From: a virus
Taxonomy: Duplodnaviria; Heunggongvirae; Uroviricota; Caudoviricetes
Reading direction: 5' to 3' (one strand)
Virus record (IMG/VR): IMGVR_UViG_2778261350_000008
Span: 1-12,505 of that record
Length of the DNA: 12,505 bases
Shown: positions 1 through 12,505 of the stretch, in pieces
Layout of the letters: each line of letters begins with the position of its first letter
How positions within the stretch are numbered: position 1 is the stretch's first letter
The notes under the pieces: model-generated
Databases searched by the model: none
Told to the model about the DNA's origin: nothing
What the model saw: only the letters and a program-made list of their open reading frames with translations
Position numbers and translations under genes: made by a program

Positions 1-273
1 AGCCGGATTGGCGTGGGGAATCTCTACCGGCTGATGCGCGGCTATGCCACCGGCGGTTATGTCGGTACACCGGGCAGCATGGCGGAGAGCCGGTCGCAGG
101 CGTCCGGGAAGTTTGAGCAGAATAACCATGTGGTGATTAACAACAACGGCACGAACGGGCAGATAGGTCCGGCTGCTCTGAAGGCGGTGTATGACATGGC
201 CCGCAAGGGTGCCCGTGATGAAATTCAGACGCAGATGCGCGATGGTGGCCTGTTCTCCGGAGGTGGACGATGA
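1..273 (+). CDS. H: Tail tape-measure protein H, C-terminal fragment (5' end lies outside the window)
   Basis: Frame 1 is open from base 1 to the TGA at 271-273. The translation (...GNLYRLMRGYATGGYVGTPGSMAESRSQ...IQTQMRDGGLFSGGGR) matches my recollection of the lambda gpH C-terminus. Its stop overlaps the next ATG (ATGA), as in lambda H/M. Confidence 0.8.
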   Translation, partial: SRIGVGNLYRLMRGYATGGYVGTPGSMAESRSQASGKFEQNNHVVINNNGTNGQIGPAALKAVYDMARKGARDEIQTQMRDGGLFSGGGR

Positions 274-599
274 AGACCTTCCGCTGGAAAGTGAAACCCG
301 GTATGGATGCGGCTTCGGCTCCTTCCGTCAGGGAAGTGCGCTTTGGTGATGGTTACTCCCAGCGCTCGCCTGCCGGGCTGAATGCCGACCTGAAAACGTA
401 CAGCGTGACGCTCTCTGTCTCACGCGAGGAGGCCACGGCGCTGGAGTCGTTTCTGGCTGAACACGGGGGCTGGAAGGCCTTTCTGTGGACGCCGCCTTAT
501 GGCTACCGGCAGATAAAGGTGACCTGCGCAAAGTGGACAGCGCGGGTCAGCATGCTTCGTGTTGAGTTCAGCGCAGAGTTTAAACAGGTGGTGAACTGA
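270..599 (+). CDS. M: Minor tail protein M
   Basis: 109 aa, the same length as lambda gpM and near-identical as recalled (MKTFRWKVKPGMD...LRVEFSAEFKQVVN). Position H-M-L is conserved and the gene is overlap-coupled on both sides. Confidence 0.9.
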   Translation: MKTFRWKVKPGMDAASAPSVREVRFGDGYSQRSPAGLNADLKTYSVTLSVSREEATALESFLAEHGGWKAFLWTPPYGYRQIKVTCAKWTARVSMLRVEFSAEFKQVVN

Positions 600-1297
600 T
601 GCAGGATATCCGACAGGAAACACTGAATGAATGCACCCGTGCGGAGCAGTCGGCCAGCGTGGTGCTCTGGGAAATCGATCTGACAGAGGTCGGTGGAGAA
701 CGTTATTTTTTCTGTAATGAGCAGAACGAAAAAGGCAAGTCGGTTATCTGGCAGGGGAGAGAGTATCAGGCGTATCCCATTCAGGGGAGTGGTTTTGAAC
801 GGAATGGCAAAGGTGCCAGTACGCGGCCCACGCTGGCAGTCTCTAACCTGTACGGCATGGTCACCGGTATGGTGGAAGATATGCAGAGTCTGGTCGGCGG
901 AACGGTGGTCCGGCGCAAGGTCTACGCCCGTTTTCTGGATGCGGTGAACTTCATCAACGGAAACAGCGACGCCGATCCGGAGCAGGAGGTGATCAGCCGC
1001 TGGCGCATTGAGCAGTGCAGCGAACTGAGCGCGGTGAGCGCCTCTTTTGTACTGGCCACGCCGACGGAAACGGATGGCGCTGTTTTCCCGGGGCGTGTCA
1101 TGCTGGCCAACACCTGCACCTGGACCTATCGCGGTGATGAGTGCGGTTATGATGGTCCGGCTGTCGCGGATGAATATGACCAGCCGACGTCCGATATCAC
1201 GAAGGATAAATGCAGCAAATGCCTGAGTGGCTGTAAGTTTCGCAATAACGTCGGCAACTTTGGCGGCTACCTTTCCATTAACAAACTTTCGCAGTAA
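599..1297 (+). CDS. L: Minor tail protein L
   Basis: 232 aa, the lambda gpL length. The start overlaps the M stop (TGATG). Cys-rich C-terminus (CTWTYRGDECGYDG...CSKCLSGCKF) as in gpL-family proteins. Confidence 0.9.
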   Translation: MQDIRQETLNECTRAEQSASVVLWEIDLTEVGGERYFFCNEQNEKGKSVIWQGREYQAYPIQGSGFERNGKGASTRPTLAVSNLYGMVTGMVEDMQSLVGGTVVRRKVYARFLDAVNFINGNSDADPEQEVISRWRIEQCSELSAVSASFVLATPTETDGAVFPGRVMLANTCTWTYRGDECGYDGPAVADEYDQPTSDITKDKCSKCLSGCKFRNNVGNFGGYLSINKLSQ

Positions 1298-1302
1298 ATC
1301 CC

Positions 1303-2046
1303 ATGACAGAGACAGAATCAGCGATTCTGGCGCACGCCCGGCGATGTGCGCCAGCGGAGTCGTGCGGCTTCGTGGTGAGAACGCCGGAGGGGGAAAGGTA
1401 TCTTCCCTGCGTGAATATCTCCGGTGAGCCGGAGGCGTATTTCCGGATGGCTCCGGAAGACTGGCTGCAGGCAGAGATGCAGGGTGAGATTGTGGCGCTG
1501 GTCCACAGCCATCCCGGTGGACTGCCCTGGCTGAGTGAGGCTGACCGGCGGCTGCAGGTGCAGAGTGATTTGCCGTGGTGGCTGGTCTGCCGGGGGGCGA
1601 TTCACAGGTTCCGCTGTGTGCCGCATCTTACCGGGCGGCGCTTTGAGCACGGGGTGACGGACTGTTACACGCTGTTCCGGGATGCTTACCATCTGGCGGG
1701 AATTGAGATGCCGGATTTTCATCGTGAGGATGACTGGTGGCGTAACGGTCAGAATCTCTATCTGGATAACCTTGAAAGACATGGTTTTTACCGTGTCGCA
1801 CTGACAGAGGCACAGCCGGGCGATGTGCTGCTGTGCTGCTTTGGTTCATCGGTGCCGAATCATGCCGCCATTTACTGCGGCGACGGTGAGCTGCTGCACC
1901 ATATTCCTGAACAACTGAGTAAACGAGAGAGGTACACCGACAAATGGCAGCGACGCACACACTCCCTCTGGCGTCACCGGGCATGGCACGCATCTGCCTT
2001 TACGGGGATTTGCAGCGATTTGGCCGCCGCATCGACCTTCGTGTGA
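1303..2046 (+). CDS. K: Tail tip assembly protein K (JAB/MPN-like plus NlpC/P60-like domains)
   Basis: 247-aa ORF starting 5 bp after L. Contains a JAMM-like motif HSHPGGLPWLSEAD (H-x-H-x7-S-x2-D) and an NlpC/P60-like Cys/His pair (GVTDCYTLF ... NHAAIYCGDGELLHH). An internal ATG at 1447 would give the 199-aa form usually annotated for lambda K. The 3' end overlaps I by 103 nt, as in lambda. Confidence 0.85.
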   Translation: MTETESAILAHARRCAPAESCGFVVRTPEGERYLPCVNISGEPEAYFRMAPEDWLQAEMQGEIVALVHSHPGGLPWLSEADRRLQVQSDLPWWLVCRGAIHRFRCVPHLTGRRFEHGVTDCYTLFRDAYHLAGIEMPDFHREDDWWRNGQNLYLDNLERHGFYRVALTEAQPGDVLLCCFGSSVPNHAAIYCGDGELLHHIPEQLSKRERYTDKWQRRTHSLWRHRAWHASAFTGICSDLAAASTFV

Positions 2047-2579
2047 AAACGGGGGCCGAAGCCATCCGGGCGCTGGTCACACAGCTTCCCGCCTTTCGTC
2101 AGAAACTGAACGACGGCTGGTATCAGGTACGCATTTCCGGACAGGATATATCCCATGAAACATTGTTCACACAGATGAATGACACACTGCCTCCGGGCGC
2201 GGTAATACATATTGTCCCTCGCCTGGAGGGGGCAAAAAACGGAGGGGTTTTTCAGGTCGTGGCCGGTGCTGTGCTTGCTGTTGTCGGTTATGCATTAAGC
2301 TGGACAGGCATAGGTGCGGTTATTGGCAACCTTGGTGTGGCCATGATGCTTGGAGGGGTGGCACAGATGCTGGCCCCTAAATCCAGAACTCCCCGTACAC
2401 AGACAACGGATAACGGCAAACAGAATACCTATTTTTCATCACTGGATAACATGATTGCCCAGGGGAATGTTCTGCCCGTTCTGTACGGTGAAATGCGCGT
2501 GGGGTCGCGGGTGGCATCTCAGGAGATCAGCACGGCAGATGAAGGGGATGGTGGCCAGATAGTGGTGATTGGTCGATGA
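1944..2579 (+). CDS. I: Tail assembly protein I
   Basis: 211 aa. N- and C-terminal regions match lambda gpI as recalled (MAATHTLPLASPGMARICLYGDLQRFGRR... ; ...NGKQNTYFSSLDNMIAQGNVLPVLYGEMRVGSRV...). A hydrophobic Gly/Ala-rich middle is present. Starts inside the 3' end of K in another frame. Confidence 0.85.
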   Translation: MAATHTLPLASPGMARICLYGDLQRFGRRIDLRVKTGAEAIRALVTQLPAFRQKLNDGWYQVRISGQDISHETLFTQMNDTLPPGAVIHIVPRLEGAKNGGVFQVVAGAVLAVVGYALSWTGIGAVIGNLGVAMMLGGVAQMLAPKSRTPRTQTTDNGKQNTYFSSLDNMIAQGNVLPVLYGEMRVGSRVASQEISTADEGDGGQIVVIGR

Positions 2580-2597
2580 TGAAATACGTTTTATGTG

Positions 2598-2626
2598 AAA
2601 CCGCCTCCGGGCGGTTTTGTCGTTTA
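2598..2626 (+). terminator. GC-rich hairpin plus T-rich tract in the I-J intergenic gap (terminator-like or attenuator-like)
   Basis: Inverted repeat AAACCGCC (2598-2605) / GGCGGTTT (2610-2617) with loop TCCG, followed by TGTCGTTT. It sits 14 bp before the J start, so it cannot be a fully efficient terminator if J is expressed. Confidence 0.35.
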
Positions 2627-2639
2627 TGGAGCGTGAGTA

Positions 2640-5600
2640 ATGGGTAAAGGTGGTGGTAAGGCGCATACGCCCCGTGAAGCCAGAGATAATCTGAAATCAT
2701 CCCAGATGCTGAGTGTGATTGATGCCATCAGCGAAGGACCGGTTTACGGGCCTGTTGACGGGCTGAAAAGCGTGTTTCTGAACGGCACGCCGGTACTGGA
2801 CCGTGAGGGGAATGCTAACTTTTCCGGTGTCACTGTGGTGTTCCGTGCCGGTGAACAGGAGCAGACACCACCGGAGGGCTTTGAATCCTCCGGTTCAGAA
2901 ACGGTGCTGGGGACGGAAGTGAAATATGACACGCCGATCACCCGGACCATCACGTCGGCAAATATCGATCGTCTGCGCCTGACCTTCGGCGTGCAGGCAC
3001 TGGTGGAAACCACCTCAAAGGGGGACCGTAACCCCTCTTCTGTCCGCCTGCTGGTTCAGATACAGCGTAACGGTGGCTGGGTGACGGAAAAAGACATCAC
3101 CATTAAGGGCAAAACCACGTCCCAGTATCTGGCCTCGGTGGTGGTGGATAACCTGCCGCCGCGACCGTTCAGTATCCGGATGCGCAGGATGACGCCGGAC
3201 AGCACCACAGACCAGTTACAGAACAAAACGCTCTGGTCGTCATACACTGAAATCATCGATGTGAAACAGTGCTACCCGAACACGGCACTGGTCGGCGTAC
3301 AGGTGGACTCGGAGCAGTTCGGCAGTCAGCAGGTGAGCCGCACTTACCATTTTCGGGGGCGTATTCTGCAGGTGCCGTCGAACTATAACCCGCAGACGCG
3401 GCAGTACAGTGGTATCTGGGACGGAACACTTAAACCGGCATACAGCAACAACCCGGCCTGGTGTCTGTGGGACATGCTGACCCATCCGCGCTACGGCATG
3501 GGGAAACGTCTTGGTGCGGCGGATGTGGACAAATGGGCGCTGTATGTCATCGGCCAGTACTGCGACCAGTCAGTGCCGGACGGCTTTGGTGGCACGGAGC
3601 CGCGCATCACCTGTAATGCCTGGCTGACCACACAGCGTAAGGCGTGGGATGTTCTCAGCGATTTCTGCTCGGCGATGCGCTGTATGCCGGTATGGAACGG
3701 GCAGACGCTGACGTTCGTGCAGGACCGGCCGTCGGATAAGGTGTGGACCTATAACCGAAGTAATGTGGTGATGCCGGATGATGGCGCTCCGTTCCGCTAC
3801 AGCTTCAGCGCCCTGAAGGACCGCCATAATGCCGTTGAGGTGAACTGGAGTGACCCGGATAACGGCCAGGAGACGGCGACAGAGCTTGTGGAGGACACAC
3901 AGGCCATTGCCCGTTACGGTCGTAACGTCACGAAGATGGATGCCTTTGGCTGTACCAGCCGGGGGCAGGCACACCGCGCCGGGCTGTGGCTGATTAAAAC
4001 AGAACTGCTGGAAACGCAGACCGTGGATTTCAGCGTCGGCGCAGAAGGGCTTCGCCATGTACCGGGCGATGTTATTGAAATCTGTGATGATGACTATGCG
4101 GGGATCAGCACCGGTGGTCGTGTGCTGGCGGTGAACAGCCAGACCCGGACGCTGACGCTCGACCGTGAAATCACGCTGCCATCCTCCGGCACCACGCTGA
4201 TAAGCCTGGTTGACGGAAGTGGCAATCCGGTCAGCGTGGAGGTTCAGTCCGTCACCGACGGTGTGAAGGTGAAAGTGAGCCGTGTTCCTGACGGCGTTGC
4301 AGAATACAGCGTGTGGGGGCTGAAGCTGCCGACGCTGCGCCAGCGCCTGTTCCGCTGCGTCAGTATCCGTGAGAACGATGACGGCACGTATGCCATCACC
4401 GCCGTGCAGCATGTACCGGAAAAAGAAGCCATCGTGGATAACGGGGCGCACTTTGACGGTGACCAGAGCGGCACGGTGAATGGTGTCACGCCGCCGGCAG
4501 TGCAGCATCTGACCGCCGAAGTCACCGCAGACAGCGGGGAATACCAGGTGCTGGCGCGATGGGACACGCCGAAGGTGGTGAAGGGTGTGAGCTTCCTGCT
4601 TCGTCTGACCGTGGCAGCGGACGACGGCAGTGAGCGGCTGGTCAGCACAGCCAGGACGACGGAAACCACATACCGCTTCAGGCAGCTGGCGCTGGGGCGT
4701 TACACGCTGACGGTACGGGCGGTAAATGCCCAGGGGCAGCAGGGGGATCCGGCGTCGGTATCGTTCCGGATTGCCGCACCGGCAGCGCCGTCACGGATTG
4801 AGCTGACGCCGGGCTATTTTCAGATAACCGCCACGCCGCATCTTGCGGTTTATGATCCGACGGTACAGTTTGAGTTCTGGTTCTCGGAAAAGCGGATTGC
4901 GGATATCAGGCAGGTTGAAACCACAGCCCGCTATCTTGGCACGGCGCTGTACTGGATAGCTGCCAGTATCAATATCAAACCGGGCCATGATTATTACTTT
5001 TATATCCGCAGTGTGAACACCGTTGGCAAATCGGCATTCGTGGAGGCTGTTGGTCAGCCGAGTGATGATCCATCCGGCTATCTGGATTTTTTCAAAGGAG
5101 AGATAGGGAAAACCCATCTGGCTCAGGAGCTGTGGACGCAGATTGATAACAGTCAGCTTGCGCCTGACCTGGCTGAAATCAGGACGTCCATTACGGGTGT
5201 CAGCAATGAAATCACGCAGACTGTCAATAAGACACTGGAAGACCAGAGTGCAGCGATCCAGCAGATACAGAAGGTTCAGGTTGATACCAGTAATGACCTG
5301 AACAGCATGTGGGCTGTGAAGCTGCAACAGATGAAGGACGGACGCCTTTATATCGCGGGTATTGGTGCCGGTATTGGGAACACCCCCGACGGCATGCAGA
5401 GTCAGGTGCTGCTGGCGGCAGACAGGATTGCGATGATTAATCCTGCAAATGGCAACACAAAGCCGATGTTTGTGGGGCAGGGCGATCAGATATTCATGAA
5501 CGACGTGTTCCTGAAATATCTGACGGCTCCCACCATTACCAGTGGTGGTAATCCTCCGGCATTTTCCCTGACACCGGACGGGCGGCTGACGGCGAAAAAT

Positions 5601-6119
5601 GCGGATATCAGCGGTAACGTGAACGCGAACTCCGGGACGCTCAACAATGTCACGATTAATCAGAACTGCCGGATTCTGGGAAAACTGTCAGCCAATCAGA
5701 TTGAAGGCGATCTCGTTAAAACAGTGGGCAAAGCTTTCCCGCGGGACTCCCGTGCACCGGAGCGGTGGCCATCAGGGACCATTACCGTCAGGATTTATGA
5801 CGATCAGCCGTTTGACCGGCAGATTGTTATTCCGGCGGTGGCTTTCCGCGGTGCCAGACATGAGCGGGAGAATAGCGATACTTATTCGTCATGCCGTCTG
5901 ATAGTGAAGAAAAACGGTGCTGAAATTTATAACCGAACGGCTCTGGATAATACGCTGATTTACACGGGTGTTATTGATATGCCTGCAGGCAGTGGCGTAA
6001 TGACACTGGAGTTTTCTGTATCAGCATGGTGGGTAAATGGCTGGTATCCCACAGCGAGTATCAGCGATTTGCTGGTTGTTGTGATGAAGAAATCCACTGC
6101 AGGCATCACGATTAGCTGA
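2640..6119 (+). CDS. J: Tail tip / host-specificity protein J (central tail fibre)
   Basis: 1159-aa ORF (lambda J is 1132 aa) directly after I. GGAG lies 9 nt upstream of the ATG. Position and size are diagnostic; the divergent C-terminal ~250 aa would be the receptor-binding part. Confidence 0.9.
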
Positions 6120-6137
6120 ATTTTATAACCCAGATAC

Positions 6138-6163
6138 GGGCGCCAGAAATGGCGCCTTTTTTA
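6138..6163 (+). terminator. Rho-independent terminator after J
   Basis: Perfect palindromic stem GGCGCC (6139-6144) / GGCGCC (6151-6156) with loop AGAAAT, immediately followed by TTTTTTATT. Confidence 0.6.
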
Positions 6164-6186
6164 TTACAGAAAAGCGAGAGGTAATT

Positions 6187-6786
6187 ATGCGTAAAGTTTG
6201 TGCCGCCATTTTGTCCGCTGCCATCTGTCTGGTCGTATCCGGTGCGCCTGCATGGGCGTCTGAGCAGCAGGCCACACTGAGTGCAGGGTATCTTCATGCC
6301 CGGACGAACGCTCCCGGCAGCGATAATCTGAACGGGATTAACGTGAAATACCGTTATGAGTTTACGGACACGCTGGGGCTGATTACGTCCTTCAGTTATG
6401 CCAGTGCCGAAGATGAGCGAAAAACGCACTACAGCGATACCCGCTGGCATGAAGATTCCGTGCGTAACCGCTGGTTCAGCGTGATGGCGGGGCCGTCTGT
6501 GCGCGTGAATGAATGGTTCAGCGCGTATGCGATGGCGGGTATGGCTTACAGCCGGGTGTCGACTTTTTCCGGGGATTATCTCCGCGTAGCTGACAACACG
6601 GGGAAAACGCACGATGTGCTGACCGGAAGTGCTGACGGTCGCCACAGCAACACGTCTCTGGCGTGGGGCGCTGGCGTGCAGTTTAACCCGACCGAATCCG
6701 TGGCCATTGATGTCGCTTATGAAGGTTCCGGCAGTGGCGACTGGCGTACTGACGGTTTCATCGTGGGTGTTGGTTATAAATTCTGA
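6187..6786 (+). CDS. lom: Lom / Ail / PagC-family outer-membrane beta-barrel protein (lysogenic-conversion type)
   Basis: 199 aa. N-terminal signal peptide MRKVCAAILSAAICLVVSGAPAWA. The C-terminus ...VDVAYEGSGSGDWRTDGFIVGVGYKF matches the lambda Lom C-terminus as recalled. GAGAGG RBS; lambda-like position after J. Confidence 0.85.
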   Translation: MRKVCAAILSAAICLVVSGAPAWASEQQATLSAGYLHARTNAPGSDNLNGINVKYRYEFTDTLGLITSFSYASAEDERKTHYSDTRWHEDSVRNRWFSVMAGPSVRVNEWFSAYAMAGMAYSRVSTFSGDYLRVADNTGKTHDVLTGSADGRHSNTSLAWGAGVQFNPTESVAIDVAYEGSGSGDWRTDGFIVGVGYKF

Positions 6787-6808
6787 TTGTTAACACAGCT
6801 TTACGACA

Positions 6809-6835
6809 GCCCGCCGGTTCAGGCGGGCTTTTTTG
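6809..6835 (+). terminator. Rho-independent terminator after lom
   Basis: Stem GCCCGCC (6809-6815) / GGCGGGC (6822-6828), loop GGTTCA, followed by TTTTTTG. Confidence 0.6.
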
Positions 6836-6845
6836 TGGGGTGAAT

Positions 6846-9200
6846 ATGGCAGTAAAGATTTCAGGTGTACTGAAAGATGGTGCAGGTAAGCCGGTACAAA
6901 ACTGCACTATTCAACTGAAAGCCAGACGTAACAGCACCACGGTGGTGGTGAACACGGTGGCCTCAGAAAATCCGGATGAAGCAGGTCGTTACAGCATGGA
7001 TGTTGAGTACGGTCAGTACAGCGTCAGTCTGTTGGTGGAGGGGTTCCCGCCGTCACATGCCGGGACCATCACCGTCTATGAAGATTCCCGACCCGGTACG
7101 CTGAATGATTTTCTCGGTGCCATGACGGAGGATGATGCCCGTCCGGAGGCACTGCGGCGTTTTGAACTGATGGTGGAAGAAGCGGCACGTAACGCTGAAG
7201 CCGCCTCTAAGAGCGCAGCGGCGGCAAAGAAATCCGAAACTGCAGCGGCATCATCGAAGAACGCGGCGAAAACCTCAGAAACGAATGCAGCTAACAGCGC
7301 ACAGGCGGCAGCGACCTCACAGACTGCATCAGCAAACTCCGCGACAGCAGCCAAAAAATCAGAAACCAACGCGAAAAACAGCGAGACAGCCGCAAAGACG
7401 AGTGAAACTAACGCAAAGTCCAGCCAGACGGCAGCGAAGACCAGCGAAACGAATGCCAAAGCCAGTGAAACTGCGGCGAAAAGCAGTCAGGATGCAGCAG
7501 CCGAAAGCGAGAGTGCTGCAGCCGGTTCTGCGACTTCAGCAGCTGGATCAGCAACTGCTGCGGCTAACAGCCAGAAAGCCGCGAAGACGAGCGAAACTAA
7601 CGCAAAGTCCAGCCAGACGGCAGCGAAGACCAGCGAAACGAATGCCAAAGCCAGCGAAACTGCGGCGAAAAACAGTCAGGATGCAGCAGCCCAAAGCGAG
7701 AGTGCCGCAGCTGGTTCTGCAACAGCGGCAGCTAATAGCCAAAAAGCTGCAAAAACCAGTGAAACTAACGCAAAGACGAGTGAAACAAAAGCAGCAGCCA
7801 GCGAGACAGAAGCAACGTCAGCCGCAACAAGAGCAGAGAATGCAGCCCGGATTGCAGAAGATGCCGCTGATCCTGCTTCTGTCCCTCCGCTTCCTGATAT
7901 CTGGCTACCCTTGAATGATTCTCTGGAAGCGATAACAGGGTATGCCCCGGGCTATAAAACAATAACCATCGGCAGTGATGAAATAACAATGCCTGTTAAT
8001 GGCATATGCCAATTTAGCCGGGCTTCATCTGCAACGTATATTGATAAGTCCGGGCATATTACCGTGGCAGGGAATAACGTTCCTCGTTTTGAAAAATATG
8101 GTTTGCTGATAGAGAATCAGCGAACAAACATGTTCGTAAATAGTTTTAATCCTGATGCCTGGAATAAAAGCGGTGGTATATCTGTAACATCATCAACAGA
8201 TGAATTTGAGTTTAAATATGGACGTTTCACGGTAGGAAGCGATATAGCAGGAACGACAACAGGGCGAAATATATGCACAGTTGCTGGTAACAAAGGCATA
8301 GATGTGACTGGCGATGAACAGTACAGTAAAGGTCCGTATGTTACCGCGTCGTTCAGGGTAAGAAGTGATCTCAATGTTCGCGCACGTATCCGTTTTGAAC
8401 GGTATAACTCGGAAGGATACACCTTCCTTTGCGACGCCTATTTGTCATTACAGACCCATGAACTACAAATTACTGGTGGCAATGCCCAGCTATTAACAGC
8501 AAACTTTGAAATCGATCCAGGTAGTGGATGGATATATTTTCAGGCAACACTGAAATGTCTGCCAGAATGGGGAATGGTTGGTACGCAGCTGCAAATTGCA
8601 GCCGACAGAGCAGTGGGGGCTTTTGCAACAGGTGACTGGATAGAAGTAACCACCCCGCAATTCGAGTATGGTGCCTGTGCAACTTCCTTTATCATAACGA
8701 CAACAGAGCCAGCGACTCGTGCATCAGATTTATGTAAATTTCCGCTGATGAAAAATATGTATACCATGCCTTTTACGTTCATGGTGGAAGTCCATAAAAA
8801 CTGGTTTATTTCTCATAATGCTGCACCGCGTGTCATTGATTCAGAAAATCACCAGTCCGGAGGCCCATTTATTATGGGGTTTGGTTCTTCTGGAACTATC
8901 AGTCAGGATGGTTATTCGTATTGCGATATAGGCGGGGCTAACCGGCGTGTATATGAGTCATGCGGAGTAAGAGATCTCGTTATGGGATTCAGGGTTAAGG
9001 CTGACGGCATGACATGCTCATTTGCAAATAAGAATATAAGCACTGAAACCAAAACAGTATGGAAATATATTCGTGAAGCAGCCGTGATTCGTATCGGGGG
9101 GCAAACGACGACAGGATTACGACACCTTAATGGTCATATAAAAAACCTCCGTTTCTGGAACAGAGCATTGTCAGATACGCAGATTAAGGAATACGTATAA
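6846..9200 (+). CDS. stf: Side tail fibre protein, mosaic: lambda Stf-like N-terminus, Ala/Ser/Thr repeat shaft, foreign C-terminal receptor-binding region with a lectin-like (LamG/ConA-type) end
   Basis: N-terminus MAVKISGVLKDGAGKPVQNCTIQLKARRNSTTVVVN...VYEDSRPGTLNDFLGAMTEDDARPEALRRFELMVEE matches lambda Stf as recalled. The ORF track begins at a GTG (6840); the ATG at 6846 gives the lambda-like start. Residues ~120-330 are low-complexity SETNAK-type repeats. From about nt 7880 the DNA is visibly AT-richer, and the protein ends ...LRHLNGHIKNLRFWNRALSDTQIKEYV, which resembles the terminal strand motif of LamG-like jelly-roll domains. Confidence 0.8.
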   Translation: MAVKISGVLKDGAGKPVQNCTIQLKARRNSTTVVVNTVASENPDEAGRYSMDVEYGQYSVSLLVEGFPPSHAGTITVYEDSRPGTLNDFLGAMTEDDARPEALRRFELMVEEAARNAEAASKSAAAAKKSETAAASSKNAAKTSETNAANSAQAAATSQTASANSATAAKKSETNAKNSETAAKTSETNAKSSQTAAKTSETNAKASETAAKSSQDAAAESESAAAGSATSAAGSATAAANSQKAAKTSETNAKSSQTAAKTSETNAKASETAAKNSQDAAAQSESAAAGSATAAANSQKAAKTSETNAKTSETKAAASETEATSAATRAENAARIAEDAADPASVPPLPDIWLPLNDSLEAITGYAPGYKTITIGSDEITMPVNGICQFSRASSATYIDKSGHITVAGNNVPRFEKYGLLIENQRTNMFVNSFNPDAWNKSGGISVTSSTDEFEFKYGRFTVGSDIAGTTTGRNICTVAGNKGIDVTGDEQYSKGPYVTASFRVRSDLNVRARIRFERYNSEGYTFLCDAYLSLQTHELQITGGNAQLLTANFEIDPGSGWIYFQATLKCLPEWGMVGTQLQIAADRAVGAFATGDWIEVTTPQFEYGACATSFIITTTEPATRASDLCKFPLMKNMYTMPFTFMVEVHKNWFISHNAAPRVIDSENHQSGGPFIMGFGSSGTISQDGYSYCDIGGANRRVYESCGVRDLVMGFRVKADGMTCSFANKNISTETKTVWKYIREAAVIRIGGQTTTGLRHLNGHIKNLRFWNRALSDTQIKEYV
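7392..7748. repeat. In-frame tandem duplication inside the stf shaft (two units of about 189 and 168 bp)
   Basis: 7392-7580 and 7581-7748 are near-identical; unit 1 carries an extra 21 bp (7 aa, SAAGSAT). Each encodes AAKTSETNAKSSQTAAKTSETNAKASETAAK(S/N)SQDAAA(E/Q)SESAAAGSAT...AAANSQKA. Shorter, degenerate copies of the same motif flank it from about 7230 to 7800. Confidence 0.7.
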
Positions 9201-9469
9201 TGCGGGATATAACATTACGATTCGATAACAGAGAACAGTTTAACGCAATTGTATATGACAGTGGCCTGTTCAGTCTTGAAGAAGAAAATGGGATTCTTGT
9301 TGATGTTATTGGCGGCATTATTGATTACGAGGAGCCAGAAAACGAAAGATGTACAGGCATTGATCGCGGTGGTTTTTTCGTAAACATGAGGATTGTTGAT
9401 GGCAGTAAAAACATATCTTCTTTAATGCCTTTCATTACGACAGATCAGCATGTAAGGACATGGGCTTAA
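9200..9469 (+). CDS. Hypothetical 89-aa acidic protein, start-coupled to stf (candidate cognate fibre chaperone or accessory protein)
   Basis: Its ATG overlaps the stf stop (TAATG at 9198-9202). AAGGAA lies 8 nt upstream. AT-rich like the stf 3' half. I recognise no homologue. The same frame stays open for 39 codons after its TAA. Confidence 0.45.
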   Translation: MRDITLRFDNREQFNAIVYDSGLFSLEEENGILVDVIGGIIDYEEPENERCTGIDRGGFFVNMRIVDGSKNISSLMPFITTDQHVRTWA

Positions 9470-9593
9470 TGGAGCTTGCTTGTTCAGGTAGCCAGAGAAT
9501 CAGACGACAGAATAACAGCACTGGAAGAAGAAAACGCAGAATTAAGACAAAGATTATCTGCAATTGAGGCGGCGCTTGCGTCTGAATAATATT

Positions 9594-9618
9594 AAGGGGC
9601 CGAGCGCCCCGTTTTATT
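9594..9618 (+). terminator. Terminator-like hairpin ending the stf / small-ORF transcription unit
   Basis: Stem GGGGC (9596-9600) / GCCCC (9606-9610), loop CGAGC, followed by GTTTTATT. Confidence 0.45.
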
Positions 9619-9631
9619 GGGTAGGATGAAA

Positions 9632-9925
9632 ATGGATATAACACCTTTCCTTCATGCACTTTGTGCTGTGGCTGCGCAGGTACTGATTGGCCTTTTTACC
9701 GGAAACTGGGTTTACGGTGCGATAGCTGGTTGTACGTTCTTCATTGCGCGGGAACACACCCAGGCAGAATATTGCTGGATTGAAATGTTCGGGCATGGCA
9801 AGCGAATGAATATGCCGTGGTGGGGCGGTTTTGATCCGCGTGCTTGGGATGTGGCAAGCCTGATGGATTTTGCTGTGCCGGTGGTGGCGTGTCTGCTGGT
9901 CTGGCTGTTGGTTAATCGTGGGTGA
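9632..9925 (+). CDS. Hypothetical small inner-membrane protein with two predicted TM helices (prophage cargo candidate)
   Basis: MDITPFLHALCAVAAQVLIGLFTGNWVYGAIAGCTFFIA...DVASLMDFAVPVVACLLVWLLVNRG: two hydrophobic segments flank a charged, Trp-rich loop (EHTQAEYCWIEMFGHGKRMNMPWWGGFDPRAWD). AGGA lies 6 nt before the ATG at 9632. In-frame alternatives are ATG 9626 and TTG 9617. Codon use looks coding-like. No homologue recognised. Confidence 0.55.
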   Translation: MDITPFLHALCAVAAQVLIGLFTGNWVYGAIAGCTFFIAREHTQAEYCWIEMFGHGKRMNMPWWGGFDPRAWDVASLMDFAVPVVACLLVWLLVNRG

Positions 9926-9935
9926 AAAAAGGTGA

Positions 9936-10057
9936 GCTGTATATGCAACGGAGGAAGAAACCCCGTTGCTGGCGGCATGGAAGAAGTATCGGGTGCTGCT
10001 CAACCGAACTATACATCAGTAGCTCCGGACATTGAGTGGCCTGTACAACCGGAATAA
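9936..10057 (+). pseudogene. tfa: 3' remnant of a lambda-type tail fibre assembly gene (tfa), truncated and frameshifted
   Basis: One frame reads [28 protein letters not shown]. A second frame continues YTSVAPDIEWPVQPE* (ATG-initiated MEEVSGAAQPNYTSVAPDIEWPVQPE at 9977-10057). Together these match the lambda Tfa C-terminus as I recall it (...[36 protein letters not shown]...). No N-terminal portion is present; the segment begins right after the stop of the membrane-protein gene. Confidence 0.6.
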
Positions 10058-10079
10058 ATATCAGGAGGAGTAATTAATC

Positions 10080-11215
10080 GTGTCGACTCTGATTTCCGGC
10101 GTATTAAAAGATGGTGCAGGTATACCGCTGGCTGCCAGATTATCCTGAAATCCCGTGTAAACACCTCAGATGTGGTGATGTCTGTTGTTGCGCATATTGT
10201 AACCGGGCAAAACGGGGAATATGCGTTTGAGGCCCGGACGGGGAAGTACAGCGTTTATCTGAAGACTGACTGGCGTAATGAGTTTCAGGTTGGTGTTATT
10301 TCTGTTTATGAGGACTCACAACCGGGCACACTGAACGACTTCCTGATAGCAGTGAGTGATGCTGATTTGAAGCCGGACGTTCTGCGGCGGTTCGATGAGC
10401 TGGCGAGGCGTGTCCATGAAGACGCGAACAGCGCAGAACAGTTTGCCGGAGATGCCCGTCGTGCTGTGGATGAACTGGGCGGTAAGGTTCAGGACGATAT
10501 TCGTGACCGTACACCGGACCGTCTGGCTCTGCCCGGTGCTTACGGCTTCGGCGGAATATTCAGCCGCTCGGAAGCTCTGTCGTTTCAGGGGGTATCTGAT
10601 TTTGGTGCGTGGCTACAGAAAGCCACGCCGGGGCGTTATCCGGTCACTGTTGCGGATTCTTCTGCATTGCTGTTGGGCACCACGAAATTTAACGGCAACA
10701 TTGATGTGCTGTGGTCACCCTTTGATAACGACGGGTCGGACACAGCGCACAAATTCAAAACGCTGTTGTGTTACAACGAGCCACGTGCCGGAGAGCACGG
10801 GCTACACCTGCTCCAGTACTGGTACGAGGGCGACAACCTGCGGGTTGCGGGCAGTATGATAGTCTGCGACGCTCCGTCGCTGGCGACACTGCTGTCAGCA
10901 ACAGCGGGAGCGGACCCGTCAGGGTTCTACCGTTATCCGGCGGTGGGTTCCCTGTTGCTGGCAGCGTACCACGGGGCATCTGCCGGTGCTGGCGGGGTGA
11001 GTATTGCAACAGGCGACGTTGTTCCGGGCTCCTGTCTGGGGCCGGTGAGTATTCCGTGCGCGGTGAACGAAGGCGGCACAACTCCGTCGCCGCTGCGGGC
11101 GTTTGTTGGTGGTGCCGGACAGTACAATTTCCCCGGACGTTACCAGGCGTTATCCGGTGCAAATAATGTCCGTGGAAACAATGGGTTTATCTGTCTGTTT
11201 GTGCGCGTTGAGTAG
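10080..11215 (+). pseudogene. Second tail fibre gene (Stf N-terminal paralogue), disrupted by a 1-nt frameshift near 10131-10133
   Basis: The GTG at 10080 (GGAGGAG upstream) opens a frame reading VSTLISGVLKDGAGIPLAARLS*, which stops at 10146-10148. The -1 frame continues ...CQIILKSRVNTSDVV and joins the 347-aa ORF 10172..11215. The joined product aligns with the stf N-terminus (ISGVLKDGAG ; C-Q/T-I-x-LK ; VYEDSQPGTLNDFL ; LRRF-EL). The C-terminal part is Gly/Ala-rich and GC-rich. Confidence 0.6.
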
Positions 11216-11222
11216 GTGAGAA

Positions 11223-11816
11223 ATGAACGCAGTAAAAGATATTCGCAATCCGGTGCATCTCGGAAACGGCGCGGTTGACTGTGAGGTGCTGTTTGAGGGG
11301 CGCAGCGAGTACGTTGTTTATACGGCTGCGCCGGGCGACGCAGCCCCGACAGGTCAGCGTATCTGGCAGGAACTACAGAGCGGCAAATGGGGCGAAATTG
11401 CCCCGTTCACGGCCACGCCGGAACTGATAGCGGCGGCGAAGGATGCAAAACGTCAGGAAATTGAGGTGTGGCGTACCGAACAGGAAGCGCAGTCGTTCAC
11501 GTTTGAGTGGAACGGTCGAACCTGGAACGCGGGGCCGTCCTCACTGGCCCGGCTCACGCCTGCGATTACGGCGGCGGAATACGCCGGCGAGCAGGCTGTT
11601 ACCTGGAGCGATACAACCAACGAGCCGGTAAACCTGACAGTGCAGGAACTGAAATCGCTGGCCGTCGCACTGGCTCAGGCACTCTCTGAGCGGAACAACG
11701 CGATTTATCGTCGCCAGCGGGAGATGAAGGATACGTTAAACACCCTGGAGAATCTGGCAGAGGTGCAGGCGTTTAAGGTTGGAGAACAATCTATATTGGG
11801 GGTAAGCCGTATTTAG
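11223..11816 (+). CDS. Putative tail fibre assembly / chaperone protein (assigned by position)
   Basis: 197-aa ORF 8 bp after the stf2 stop, with AGGTGAG RBS. Contains a W-N-G-x-(T/A)-W motif ([11 protein letters not shown]) reminiscent of Tfa proteins (lambda Tfa has WNGTAW), but it lacks the lambda-type Tfa C-terminus seen in the remnant at 9936-10057. Confidence 0.5.
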
Positions 11817-12120
11817 CTCTTGCGCGGTTACACGCCTCATTGACGACGCCGTTCTCGCCAGACATGGCGAATTCTCTGCATGTGGATGATCGATTTTCAT
11901 ATATCGTGCAGCAGGCATTTTTGCCCGGAGTTCCAGCAAGGGCAACACATCTGGGGTTTTTCTGGTTTGTACCGATCATGCATCGGTGAAAAGGCGATAC
12001 TTGTTCAGTAAGTCTGGCGGGAATGGTGCCGCCGGCATCGTCGGCTTCGGCCCAGTAAAAAGAGACGCGGAAAAATGCACAACAGGCGCCACACGTCATG
12101 CATGGATTCAGATTGCTCAT
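11791..12120 (-). CDS. ykgJ: YkgJ-family cysteine-cluster protein (putative Zn/Fe-binding; UPF0153)
   Basis: 109 aa, beginning [25 protein letters not shown], i.e. the C-x2-C-G-x-C-C signature of the YkgJ family, with further C-terminal Cys residues ([17 protein letters not shown]). Convergent with tfa2 and overlapping it by 26 bp. Confidence 0.65.
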
Positions 12121-12139
12121 AATTCACCAGTACAGCTAT

Positions 12140-12188
12140 AAATCATAAAGAAAACAGCGGTACGTCGTATGAAAGAACTTACCGCTGT
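12140..12188 (-). terminator. Possible minus-strand terminator downstream of the DinI-like gene
   Basis: Inverted repeat ACAGCGGTA (12154-12162) / TACCGCTGT (12180-12188). On the minus strand it is followed by TTTTCTTTATGATTT. The 17-nt loop is large, hence the low confidence. Confidence 0.3.
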
Positions 12189-12256
12189 TGGCTGGTGAAC
12201 TTTTCGATAGTGCGAGTATTGAATGATTTCCAGCCGTTACCGATTTTACTCGTTAA

Positions 12257-12505
12257 TTAGCGAACAAACCACTCGTCAGCAGACTCCCAGGTATCTTTCA
12301 GCGTCTCCTGAACAAAAGTTTTTGCAGAATCTTTATCGGCGGTGCGAGTAACTGAAAGGCCATCGTTGCTGGTGGCTTTTATGATCACTTCTACATCGTC
12401 ATAACGCTTACTGATGCGTCGGGTTAATTCTTCCTTTAACGCATCCACAGCACCGTTTGGCATTTTAGTCATTTTTTCTTTGGCTATGCAGATCTCAATA
12501 CGCAT
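12257..12505 (-). CDS. DinI-family protein (DNA-damage-inducible protein I-like; modulator of RecA filament activity)
   Basis: 82 aa, [31 protein letters not shown]...[16 protein letters not shown]. Co-linear with E. coli DinI as recalled (MRIEVTIAK...AIDAL..EL.RRI...ETWESADDWFV). The ATG is the last three bases of the window (minus strand), so the promoter lies outside. Confidence 0.85.

Follow-up and report, generated by a model that had tools for sequence, protein, structure and literature searches.

A conserved gene for a small predicted membrane protein beside the tail-fibre genes of Escherichia coli phages

The 12,505-nucleotide (nt) stretch of DNA analysed here (positions 1 to 12,505 of IMG/VR virus record IMGVR_UViG_2778261350_000008, hereafter the window) contains the tail end of a lambdoid prophage. 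On the + strand of its fibre region, running from an ATG at position 9632 to a TGA at 9925, lies the gene considered in this study, which encodes a 97-amino-acid (aa) predicted membrane protein of PHROG 1443, a family of uncharacterised function. Upstream of it on the same strand are a side tail fibre gene, a small open reading frame (ORF) termed orf89, the remnant of a distal fibre gene and a terminator-like hairpin; downstream lies a frameshifted remnant of the gene tfa. We describe the gene and its junctions, the family to which it belongs and the functions that its conservation and neighbours suggest.

The gene and its fibre cassette

A preliminary description of this DNA had reported a coding ORF of about 98 aa at 9617–9925. 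An open frame does span these positions, with 102 aa counted from a TTG codon, and the gene within it is real, but the TTG is not its start. Residue 6 of the 102-aa frame is where the PHROG profile starts, the Prokaryotic Genome Annotation Pipeline (PGAP) places the start in an identical genome at ATG 9632 with the same coding-sequence coordinates (9632–9925), and the homologues all begin MD(I/L)(T/S)P; because these three agree, we assign the start to ATG 9632. The five codons of the in-frame upstream extension (9617–9631, + strand, read directly from the sequence) are probably untranslated. They include a weak Shine–Dalgarno-like GGTAGGA (9620–9626) and a second ATG at 9626.

Several lines of evidence show that the gene is real and constrained as a protein. 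The match to phrog_1443 is full length (E = 2.2e-57, 192 bits; residues 6–101 of the 102-aa frame against profile positions 1–96 of 97), 83 E. coli copies comprise 42 nucleotide alleles and 20 protein variants with a ratio of non-synonymous to synonymous substitution rates (dN/dS) of 0.115, and homologues occur in distant Proteobacteria; a chance frame would not account for these observations. The G+C content of the ORF, 52.7%, is similar to that of the phage overall and compares with 0.47–0.60 in the flanks. The window copy differs from its relatives at residue 48, which is Cys here and Arg in 81 of the 83 E. coli copies. This Arg48Cys substitution (codon 9773–9775; of the CGC to TGC type) is private to the window prophage among the 83.

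The terminator-like hairpin reported upstream of the gene is present, at 9596–9610, and is the sole hairpin found. It consists of GGGGC-CGAGC-GCCCC (a 5-bp G+C stem with a 5-nt loop) followed by GTTTTATT, and with its T-rich tail, delimited by a terminator scan, it extends over 9596–9618 on the + strand. The promoter that this hairpin had been taken to imply was not borne out. The T-run ends only about 13 nt before ATG 9632, and a consensus scan of the + strand from 9100 to 9632 gave no sigma-70-like site, a scan that weak or non-sigma-70 promoters could escape. Further, 56 of 82 related E. coli phage loci have no hairpin and instead pass from a stop codon through a strong AGGAGG to the ATG across a gap of 10–18 nt, with the identical hairpin junction occurring in the other 26.

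These 82 loci share the order lom, stf, orf93, an optional distal fibre gene and the membrane-protein gene, and fall into three junction types. In the first (26 loci), to which the window belongs, a 345-aa Peptidase_S74 fibre gene is followed by the hairpin and the gene; in the second (36 loci), a 227–234-aa Peptidase_S74 fibre gene ends in TAA and leads through AGGAGG to the ATG with a 10-nt gap; and in the third (20 loci and phage 21), the gene comes straight after orf93 with a strong Shine–Dalgarno sequence, at a gap of 18 nt in the 20 loci and 12 nt in phage 21. By its distribution, the hairpin is a constant feature where the 345-aa fibre gene meets the membrane-protein gene, and it belongs to that cassette type alone. 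The short fibres of the second type, the commonest cassette type in E. coli, consist of a coiled coil and a Peptidase_S74 chaperone domain and little else (positions 4286–4990 of loci L009 and L014).

Where the family gene directly follows a fibre gene, the distance between them is either a gap of 9–18 nt with a strong Shine–Dalgarno sequence or an overlap of 4–8 nt. By this arrangement, the gene is coupled to the fibre operon and would be read within it and not from a promoter of its own, and because of these tight gaps and overlaps we place it as the last gene of the receptor-binding cassette and not as a promoter-bearing moron.

The cassette in the window begins with the side tail fibre gene (6840–9200, + strand; 786 aa), identified by synteny and by an N-terminal phage_tail_N domain (Pfam PF08400, E = 4e-70), and continues with orf89 (9200–9469, + strand), a small soluble ORF that matches phrog_1361 (unknown function; E = 1e-29) and no Pfam family. 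Directly after orf89, positions 9473–9583 correspond to codons 309–345 of the 345-aa distal fibre, followed by a Glu codon and a stop codon, so that the remnant occupies 9473–9589 (+ strand). In a tblastn comparison it is 97% identical to residues 309–345 of the 345-aa fibre of phage 2G7b, which carries Peptidase_S74; the part surviving in the window is the C-terminal coiled coil, and PGAP labels it ‘tail fiber domain-containing protein, missing N-terminus’. Because the distal fibre gene is cut to its last 37 codons, the cassette of the window has been internally deleted.

On the other side of the gene, the reported tfa remnant was confirmed as a frameshifted 3′ piece at 9945–10057 (+ strand) by a PGAP note and by its translation, which reads ...LAAWKKYRVLLNRTIHQ* before the frame shifts. 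The same junction is found in phages 2G7b, PhiR63_1, PhiR49_1 and ev243, and marks the right-hand limit of the cassette, which here displaced part of an older stf–tfa module. The cassette comprises the side tail fibre, orf89, the Peptidase_S74 distal fibre and the membrane protein, set within older stf–tfa remains. Structural fibre genes do lie on both sides of the gene, as had been described; its placement between the fibre modules is replaced by one as the last gene of the first module, inside those remains.

Within the E. coli loci, the membrane protein is 94–99% identical beside fibres that are 43–100% identical to one another. It does not co-vary with the receptor-binding protein and, because it stays so constant while the fibres diverge to 43%, it is not a blocker matched to the receptor of its neighbour. 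For the same lack of co-variation with the fibre tip, we rejected an immunity protein to a polymorphic tip, by analogy with colicins and microcins.

The position of orf89 is syntenic in most E. coli loci. In a Leclercia P1-like element, every Laminin_G_3 fibre is followed by an equivalent of orf89 and orf93 (94–95 aa), which is thus present twice (locus L149, 3994–4278 and 5601–5888), and a Comamonas ORF of phrog_18574 with a similar sequence pattern holds the same position. These small proteins may be dedicated fibre chaperones in place of Tfa. We considered orf89/orf93 as a partner of the membrane protein and rejected it, as it follows lectin-tipped fibres instead; a specific tie of the membrane protein to Peptidase_S74 fibres was likewise rejected, many loci being without the domain.

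The remainder of the window is that of a lambdoid tail region. Pfam and PHROG scans give the 3′ end of the tape-measure gene, then M, L, K, I and J (2640–6119) and lom (6187–6786). Downstream of the membrane-protein gene on the + strand come a second fibre gene and a DUF4376 assembly-like gene, and YkgJ and DinI genes follow on the − strand; the 3′ ends of the DUF4376 gene and the YkgJ-family cysteine-cluster gene overlap by 26 nt (11791–11816). Beyond the window, past DinI, lies a dusA-targeting integrase gene. Over the shaft of the 786-aa side fibre (7362–7815), 189-bp tandem repeats in about two copies (84–94% matches), with 42-bp and 21-bp sub-repeats, encode a motif rich in Ala, Ser, Thr, Lys and Glu (...AAKTSETNAKSSQTAAK...). 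AT skew is extreme over these repeats, reaching 0.67, and fibre length may change with repeat number.

The ORF region, compared as a 309-nt query together with its flanking gene order, matches a prophage beside dusA in E. coli KC-Dl-1. The tape-measure gene of that prophage is frameshifted, and we therefore regard the prophage as defective. The second fibre gene is also frameshifted near its 5′ end (10080–10181): a GTG-initiated N terminus (VSTLISGVLKDGAGIPLAARLS*) matching the conserved phage_tail_N start is stopped after 22 codons, and the long ORF restarts at 10172 or 10178 without roughly the first 33 residues of the domain, so the second fibre is probably non-functional. Together with Arg48Cys, the frameshifts in the tape-measure and second-fibre genes suggest relaxed selection in a decaying prophage.

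Distribution and contexts of the family

PHROG 1443 is an already catalogued family that has no characterisation, name, Pfam family or literature. The inability of the preliminary description to assign the protein to a family was upheld by a wide set of searches. A Pfam-A scan of the protein at E ≤ 1 returned only PhoR (E = 0.8), an NCBIfam scan returned no match, a PHROG scan returned families of unknown function only, and no defence-protein model in PADLOC-DB v2 matched at E ≤ 1. A profile search against Protein Data Bank sequences gave chance matches (E ~0.8), and a fold search with the predicted model gave no informative neighbour. In two large protein searches (195 and 1206 matches), none of the 120 best matches listed for each had an informative name or a Pfam domain. 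Pfam scans of 64 distant relatives gave nothing above noise and no match to an exclusion family; one of the 64 gave a weak match to Phage_holin_8 (E = 0.0036). No mention of the gene or family was found in the literature, including the genome announcement of phage 21.

The family is nonetheless large. The profile search that gave 1206 proteins, nearly all of 90–110 aa, was complemented by a search of 1.8 billion representative proteins, which gave 325 clusters at 50% identity. Homologues at 35–60% identity occur across three classes of Proteobacteria, carried by phages and prophages of Gamma-, Beta- and Alphaproteobacteria. Members were found in Leclercia, Enterobacter, Aeromonas, Comamonas (with a homologue reaching 60% identity), Acidovorax, Pigmentiphaga, Chelativorans, sphingomonads and Desulfovibrio. 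Of 5426 complete E. coli genomes, 1900 contain family DNA; a carrier genome has a median of 2 copies and at most 7, and 57 copies are plasmid-borne. Among phages, 74 records carry the family, including phage 21, mEp460-like phages, Halomonas phiHAP-1 and Aeromonas jumbo phages; the phage 21 member is CPT_21_24, labelled ‘putative membrane protein’ in its record.

Conservation is concentrated in a few residues. Among relatives at 55–97% identity, the core FIAREHTQAEYRWI...GKR.NMPWWGGFDPR.W..S..D is almost invariant. Four residues (Arg40, Glu41, Trp72 and Pro83) are invariant across 64 members at 30–54% identity, and four more (His8, Gln44, Ala45 and Glu46) are almost invariant; Asp79 is invariant among closer relatives only.

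In most contexts examined, the family gene comes directly after a tail-fibre, tailspike or fibre-assembly gene, and beyond E. coli the receptor-binding proteins concerned are unrelated. It follows a Peptidase_S74 fibre gene in a Leclercia P2-like prophage, and in prophages encoding GpJ and then a Peptidase_S74 fibre, the fibre gene overlaps it by 8 nt. Elsewhere it lies beside an SGNH-esterase tailspike gene in one prophage and a pectate-lyase-like spike gene in another, overlaps by 4 nt the gene for a Laminin_G_3-tipped tail protein in Chelativorans, follows tail-protein genes in Comamonas prophages and adjoins DUF4376 assembly genes in further loci. In phiHAP-1, the order is fibre-assembly gene, family member (ORF19) and sheath gene, and there is a 4-nt overlap. 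Phage-plasmids of Leclercia P1-like and SSU5-like types also carry it by receptor-binding genes, and in the Aeromonas jumbo phage ACP1 it is directly upstream of a beta-helix tailspike gene.

Two prophages with diversity-generating retroelements (DGRs) have the order tail protein, family gene and then Avd. In these, from Comamonas nitrativorans and Pigmentiphaga humi (loci L114 and L115, 4785–6691; tail-like protein phrog_2889/5302), the family gene lies between the variable receptor-binding gene and the accessory genes of the retroelement. In several enterobacterial prophages (L142, L145 and L151, 6383–6945), a conserved pair of small ORFs (79 aa and 105–106 aa; no Pfam family) comes about 90 nt downstream of the family gene, and in other prophages umuDC-like genes occupy that place.

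Proximity to fibre or spike genes holds in most contexts and not in all. An Aeromonas chromosomal locus, kept in four genomes (L091, L094, L095 and L097; L094, Aeromonas media, 4992–9730) with no phage genes within 6 kb, reads MatE, PolB, pirin, the family gene, RIO kinase and two tandem genes for lipid A late acyltransferases (LpxL/M), the stand-alone copy being two genes away from this pair. In alphaproteobacterial genomes, the family gene follows ligA. On an E. coli P1-like plasmid, it is found among ea22/eaa-type accessory genes, including those for a signal-peptide protein and a lipoprotein, and one E. coli copy is intact beside the insertion sequence IS1. The window copy itself is intact at a site where its fibre gene is deleted. 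Because these chromosomal, plasmid, IS1-side and window copies persist, the gene does not need an adjacent fibre gene.

Predicted structure and candidate functions

The protein is predicted to be a small integral inner-membrane protein, a class supported by hydropathy and by an AlphaFold2 model computed with a 36-sequence alignment. Hydropathy gives a 34-residue hydrophobic block at residues 5–38 and a second block at 76–94, and the model has three helices (4–23, 26–52 and 74–96; predicted local distance difference test score 90). The first block is predicted to be a helix–turn–helix, and the predicted total is therefore three helices; the earlier report of two hydrophobic helices is supported as to a membrane protein and not as to the count, and its Trp- and charge-rich loop is present. 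A crude insertion-energy sum is marginal and does not settle the number of membrane spans.

The conserved polar residues fall at the N-terminal end of helix 1, in the C-terminal half of helix 2 and at the start of helix 3. Judged from helix order, a three-helix bundle would put His8, Arg40, Glu41, Gln44, Glu46, Trp72 and Asp79 with the Trp-rich loop on one face of the membrane. The conserved loop carries 5.8 Lys and Arg residues per sequence, which by the positive-inside rule suggests that it is cytoplasmic. Against this, N-terminal tails are acidic and C-terminal tails basic, and the phage 21 record cites a TMHMM prediction of 2 transmembrane domains with the loop in the periplasm.

Two structural classes were set aside. 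A lipoprotein was rejected, as the N terminus MDITPFLHALC has no basic n-region, the Leu at −1 of Cys11 is disallowed in a lipobox and Cys11 is not conserved. A CAAX-protease-like or PAP2-like enzyme was rejected because its motifs are not those of the protein and because no profile or fold matched one.

Most simply, the protein is classed as a small phage envelope accessory protein encoded beside receptor-binding genes. We consider it probable, on balance, that it is a free-standing accessory protein that acts on the host envelope, through some conserved envelope component. The most likely effect of such an action would be to block a step of phage entry after adsorption, that is, superinfection exclusion at the inner membrane. 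Genes already known from the 3′ edge of a fibre or receptor-binding module include cor (phi80, N15, HK022 and T1), llp (T5), lom (lambda) and Z/fun (P2), and because the niche is the same, we put inner-membrane exclusion forward as the leading mechanism. The superinfection-exclusion or defence role suggested in the preliminary description is a reasonable idea drawn from position; it fits with the independence of the gene from an adjacent fibre gene, seen in the chromosomal copies and in the copy lying with envelope-directed accessory genes on the P1-like plasmid. That the envelope action is phage-entry exclusion specifically is a possibility we hold tentatively, and the explanation taken whole is no firmer than a working proposal, falling short of probable.

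The proposed mechanism would combine the genetic logic of cor and llp with the location of T4 Imm, P22 SieA and HK97 gp15. Cor and Llp are, like the PHROG 1443 protein, small envelope proteins encoded beside receptor-binding genes in temperate and virulent phages, and they act without other phage proteins. They are lipoproteins of the outer membrane, which mask a single receptor, FhuA, and are found in phages that use FhuA; by contrast, the PHROG 1443 protein has no lipobox, is predicted to be integral and helical, does not co-vary with the receptor-binding protein and has no sequence or PHROG relationship to them. Imm, SieA and gp15 are inner-membrane blockers of DNA entry of 80–160 aa with several helices that work alone. 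They resemble the PHROG 1443 protein in size and in having several helices, and Imm-like proteins too have chromosomal homologues outside prophages. They differ in that no Pfam or PHROG profile connects them to PHROG 1443 (Pfam models exist for Imm_superinfect and SieB; the SieA and gp15 sequences were compared through profile scans only), in that their genes are not tied to fibre genes, and in timing, which where known is early or prophage-expressed, whereas the PHROG 1443 gene is wired into a late operon. Several copies per genome would also be unexpected for a broad entry blocker.

In its niche, the gene is closest to lambda lom and P2 Z/fun, lying after J and stf in lambdoid phages or between fibre-assembly and sheath genes in P2-like phages; phiHAP-1 ORF19 occupies exactly the latter position. 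A classical moron is an independent transcription unit, with a promoter and terminator of its own, and its base composition is often atypical; the PHROG 1443 gene differs in its 9–18-nt gaps or overlaps, in having no promoter found and in its typical G+C content. D3 Iap and the epsilon15 inhibitor are small hydrophobic inhibitors of O-antigen polymerase, encoded just after glycan-specific tailspike genes, that target the glycan machinery of the host inner membrane. The PHROG 1443 protein is likewise small, hydrophobic and encoded next to glycan-specific tailspikes; it differs in being about 97 aa, deeply conserved and serotype-independent, where those inhibitors are tiny, poorly conserved and serotype-specific, and no homology was detected.

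Several points weigh against an entry-exclusion role. The literature mentions neither a function nor expression of PHROG 1443, and similarity to exclusion or defence families was not found in Pfam, PHROGs or PADLOC. Carrier genomes have 2 copies at the median and 7 at the most, so further carrier phages are evidently not kept out; either the gene is silent in lysogens or its spectrum spares its own carriers. Operon coupling predicts late expression, a poor timing for exclusion. The dense invariant charged residues would be more typical of a catalytic or ligand-binding site than of a passive plug, and the charge signals disagree with the TMHMM prediction cited for phage 21 on the side of the loop. 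Finally, the window copy may be impaired by Arg48Cys in its decaying prophage.

A rival reading is surface conversion, in which the protein would inhibit or alter a conserved inner-membrane step in the biogenesis of lipopolysaccharide, O-antigen, enterobacterial common antigen or capsule (for example, undecaprenyl-phosphate-linked intermediates) and so change the glycans seen by the neighbouring fibres and spikes, affecting adsorption and not DNA entry. Those neighbours overwhelmingly bind or cleave glycans (Peptidase_S74 fibres, SGNH esterase, pectate-lyase and beta-helix spikes, and Laminin_G_3 lectin tips), one prophage has an acetyltransferase-like gene in its fibre cluster, and seroconversion genes normally adjoin tailspike genes and the attachment site. 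The protein has invariant Arg, Glu, His, Gln and Asp residues that would suit a catalytic or head-group-binding site, and the Aeromonas copy is two genes from two lipid A acyltransferase genes, although these are on the opposite strand and possibly chance neighbours. We nevertheless regard surface conversion as unlikely: the protein is not similar to GtrA/B, Oac, Wzy, Iap-type inhibitors or lipid-phosphate enzymes, and O-antigen machinery is highly variable, yet the protein is near-invariant across serotypes and retains 60% identity in Comamonas. The late expression predicted from the operon is instead what a lytic membrane role would call for, either as a lysis-timing accessory (holin-like, antiholin-like or a small channel) or in late protection, for example against premature holin triggering on superinfection. 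The size of about 100 aa, the three helices and the polar His and Gln inside helix 1 fit this role, as do the presence of the family in plaque-isolated jumbo Aeromonas phages and the Leclercia P1-like element, where the family gene is immediately upstream of a gene pair that includes LydB; T4 t and T7 17.5, both holins, also come directly after tail-fibre genes. Yet the C terminus (...LLVNRG) has no charged tail, the neighbours are fibre genes with no adjoining endolysin gene, and phage 21 has a complete S21/R21/Rz lysis cassette elsewhere. Of the marks of a class I holin, the charged C-terminal tail, the lysis cassette and a solid holin-family match are all absent, the match to Phage_holin_8 being weak and confined to one of 64 members. 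Holins are poorly conserved and PHROG 1443 is strongly conserved, and stable chromosomal copies in Aeromonas and alphaproteobacteria are hard to square with a lysis protein. A late lytic role is, on this evidence, quite improbable.

In siphoviruses, myoviruses, jumbo phages and phage-plasmids alike, the gene is tightly adjacent to fibre genes, and stop and start codons often overlap. This could also mean that the protein serves the fibre itself, in folding, maturation or membrane attachment or as a minor virion protein delivered with it, and several carrier cassettes have no canonical Tfa chaperone. A service of this kind is very unlikely, since the protein is constant while the fibre families differ completely, leaving no common fibre partner, and since copies persist without a fibre gene in Aeromonas, in alphaproteobacteria, on the P1-like plasmid, beside IS1 and in the window. 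To our knowledge, fibre assembly is cytoplasmic and is not known to require a membrane factor, and lambda makes side fibres without a PHROG 1443 protein. The gene might, finally, have no function of its own and be a 3′ homology arm for the exchange of fibre cassettes, or a hitchhiking ORF; nucleotide identity of 94–97% does flank highly divergent fibre genes, and the tfa remnant, just 3′ of the ORF, forms the cassette boundary. This last account is largely refuted by the dN/dS of 0.115, the invariant residues in homologues at 35–60% identity in three proteobacterial classes and the confident structure prediction, and we give it almost no weight.

A broader view of the family, which we consider rather doubtful, would make it a previously unrecognised universal companion of receptor-binding cassettes: an inner-membrane protein, catalytic or ligand-binding, with the signature Arg-Glu-x-x-Gln-Ala-Glu ... 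Trp ... Pro. Such a protein would travel together with fibre and spike genes among siphoviruses, myoviruses, jumbo phages and phage-plasmids, would be represented by domesticated copies in the chromosomes of Aeromonas and alphaproteobacteria, and would act on a Proteobacteria-wide step (lipid-linked glycan carriers or general inner-membrane entry) by a mechanism unrelated to known exclusion, seroconversion or lysis families.

Significance for phages and their hosts

PHROG 1443 places a near-invariant gene inside the receptor-binding region, the most variable and most heavily engineered part of phage genomes. A third of complete E. coli genomes carry the family, often in several copies, and so does the classical phage 21, whose gene CPT_21_24 offers, with plasmid expression, direct systems in which to test its role. 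If the protein proves to have a lytic role, it would be a missing accessory function of the fibre cassettes that are swapped in phage retargeting. If instead it blocks entry, as we tentatively propose, or remodels the envelope, the family would be a hidden and very common factor in how susceptible E. coli and its relatives are to phages, with a bearing on host-range prediction and phage therapy.

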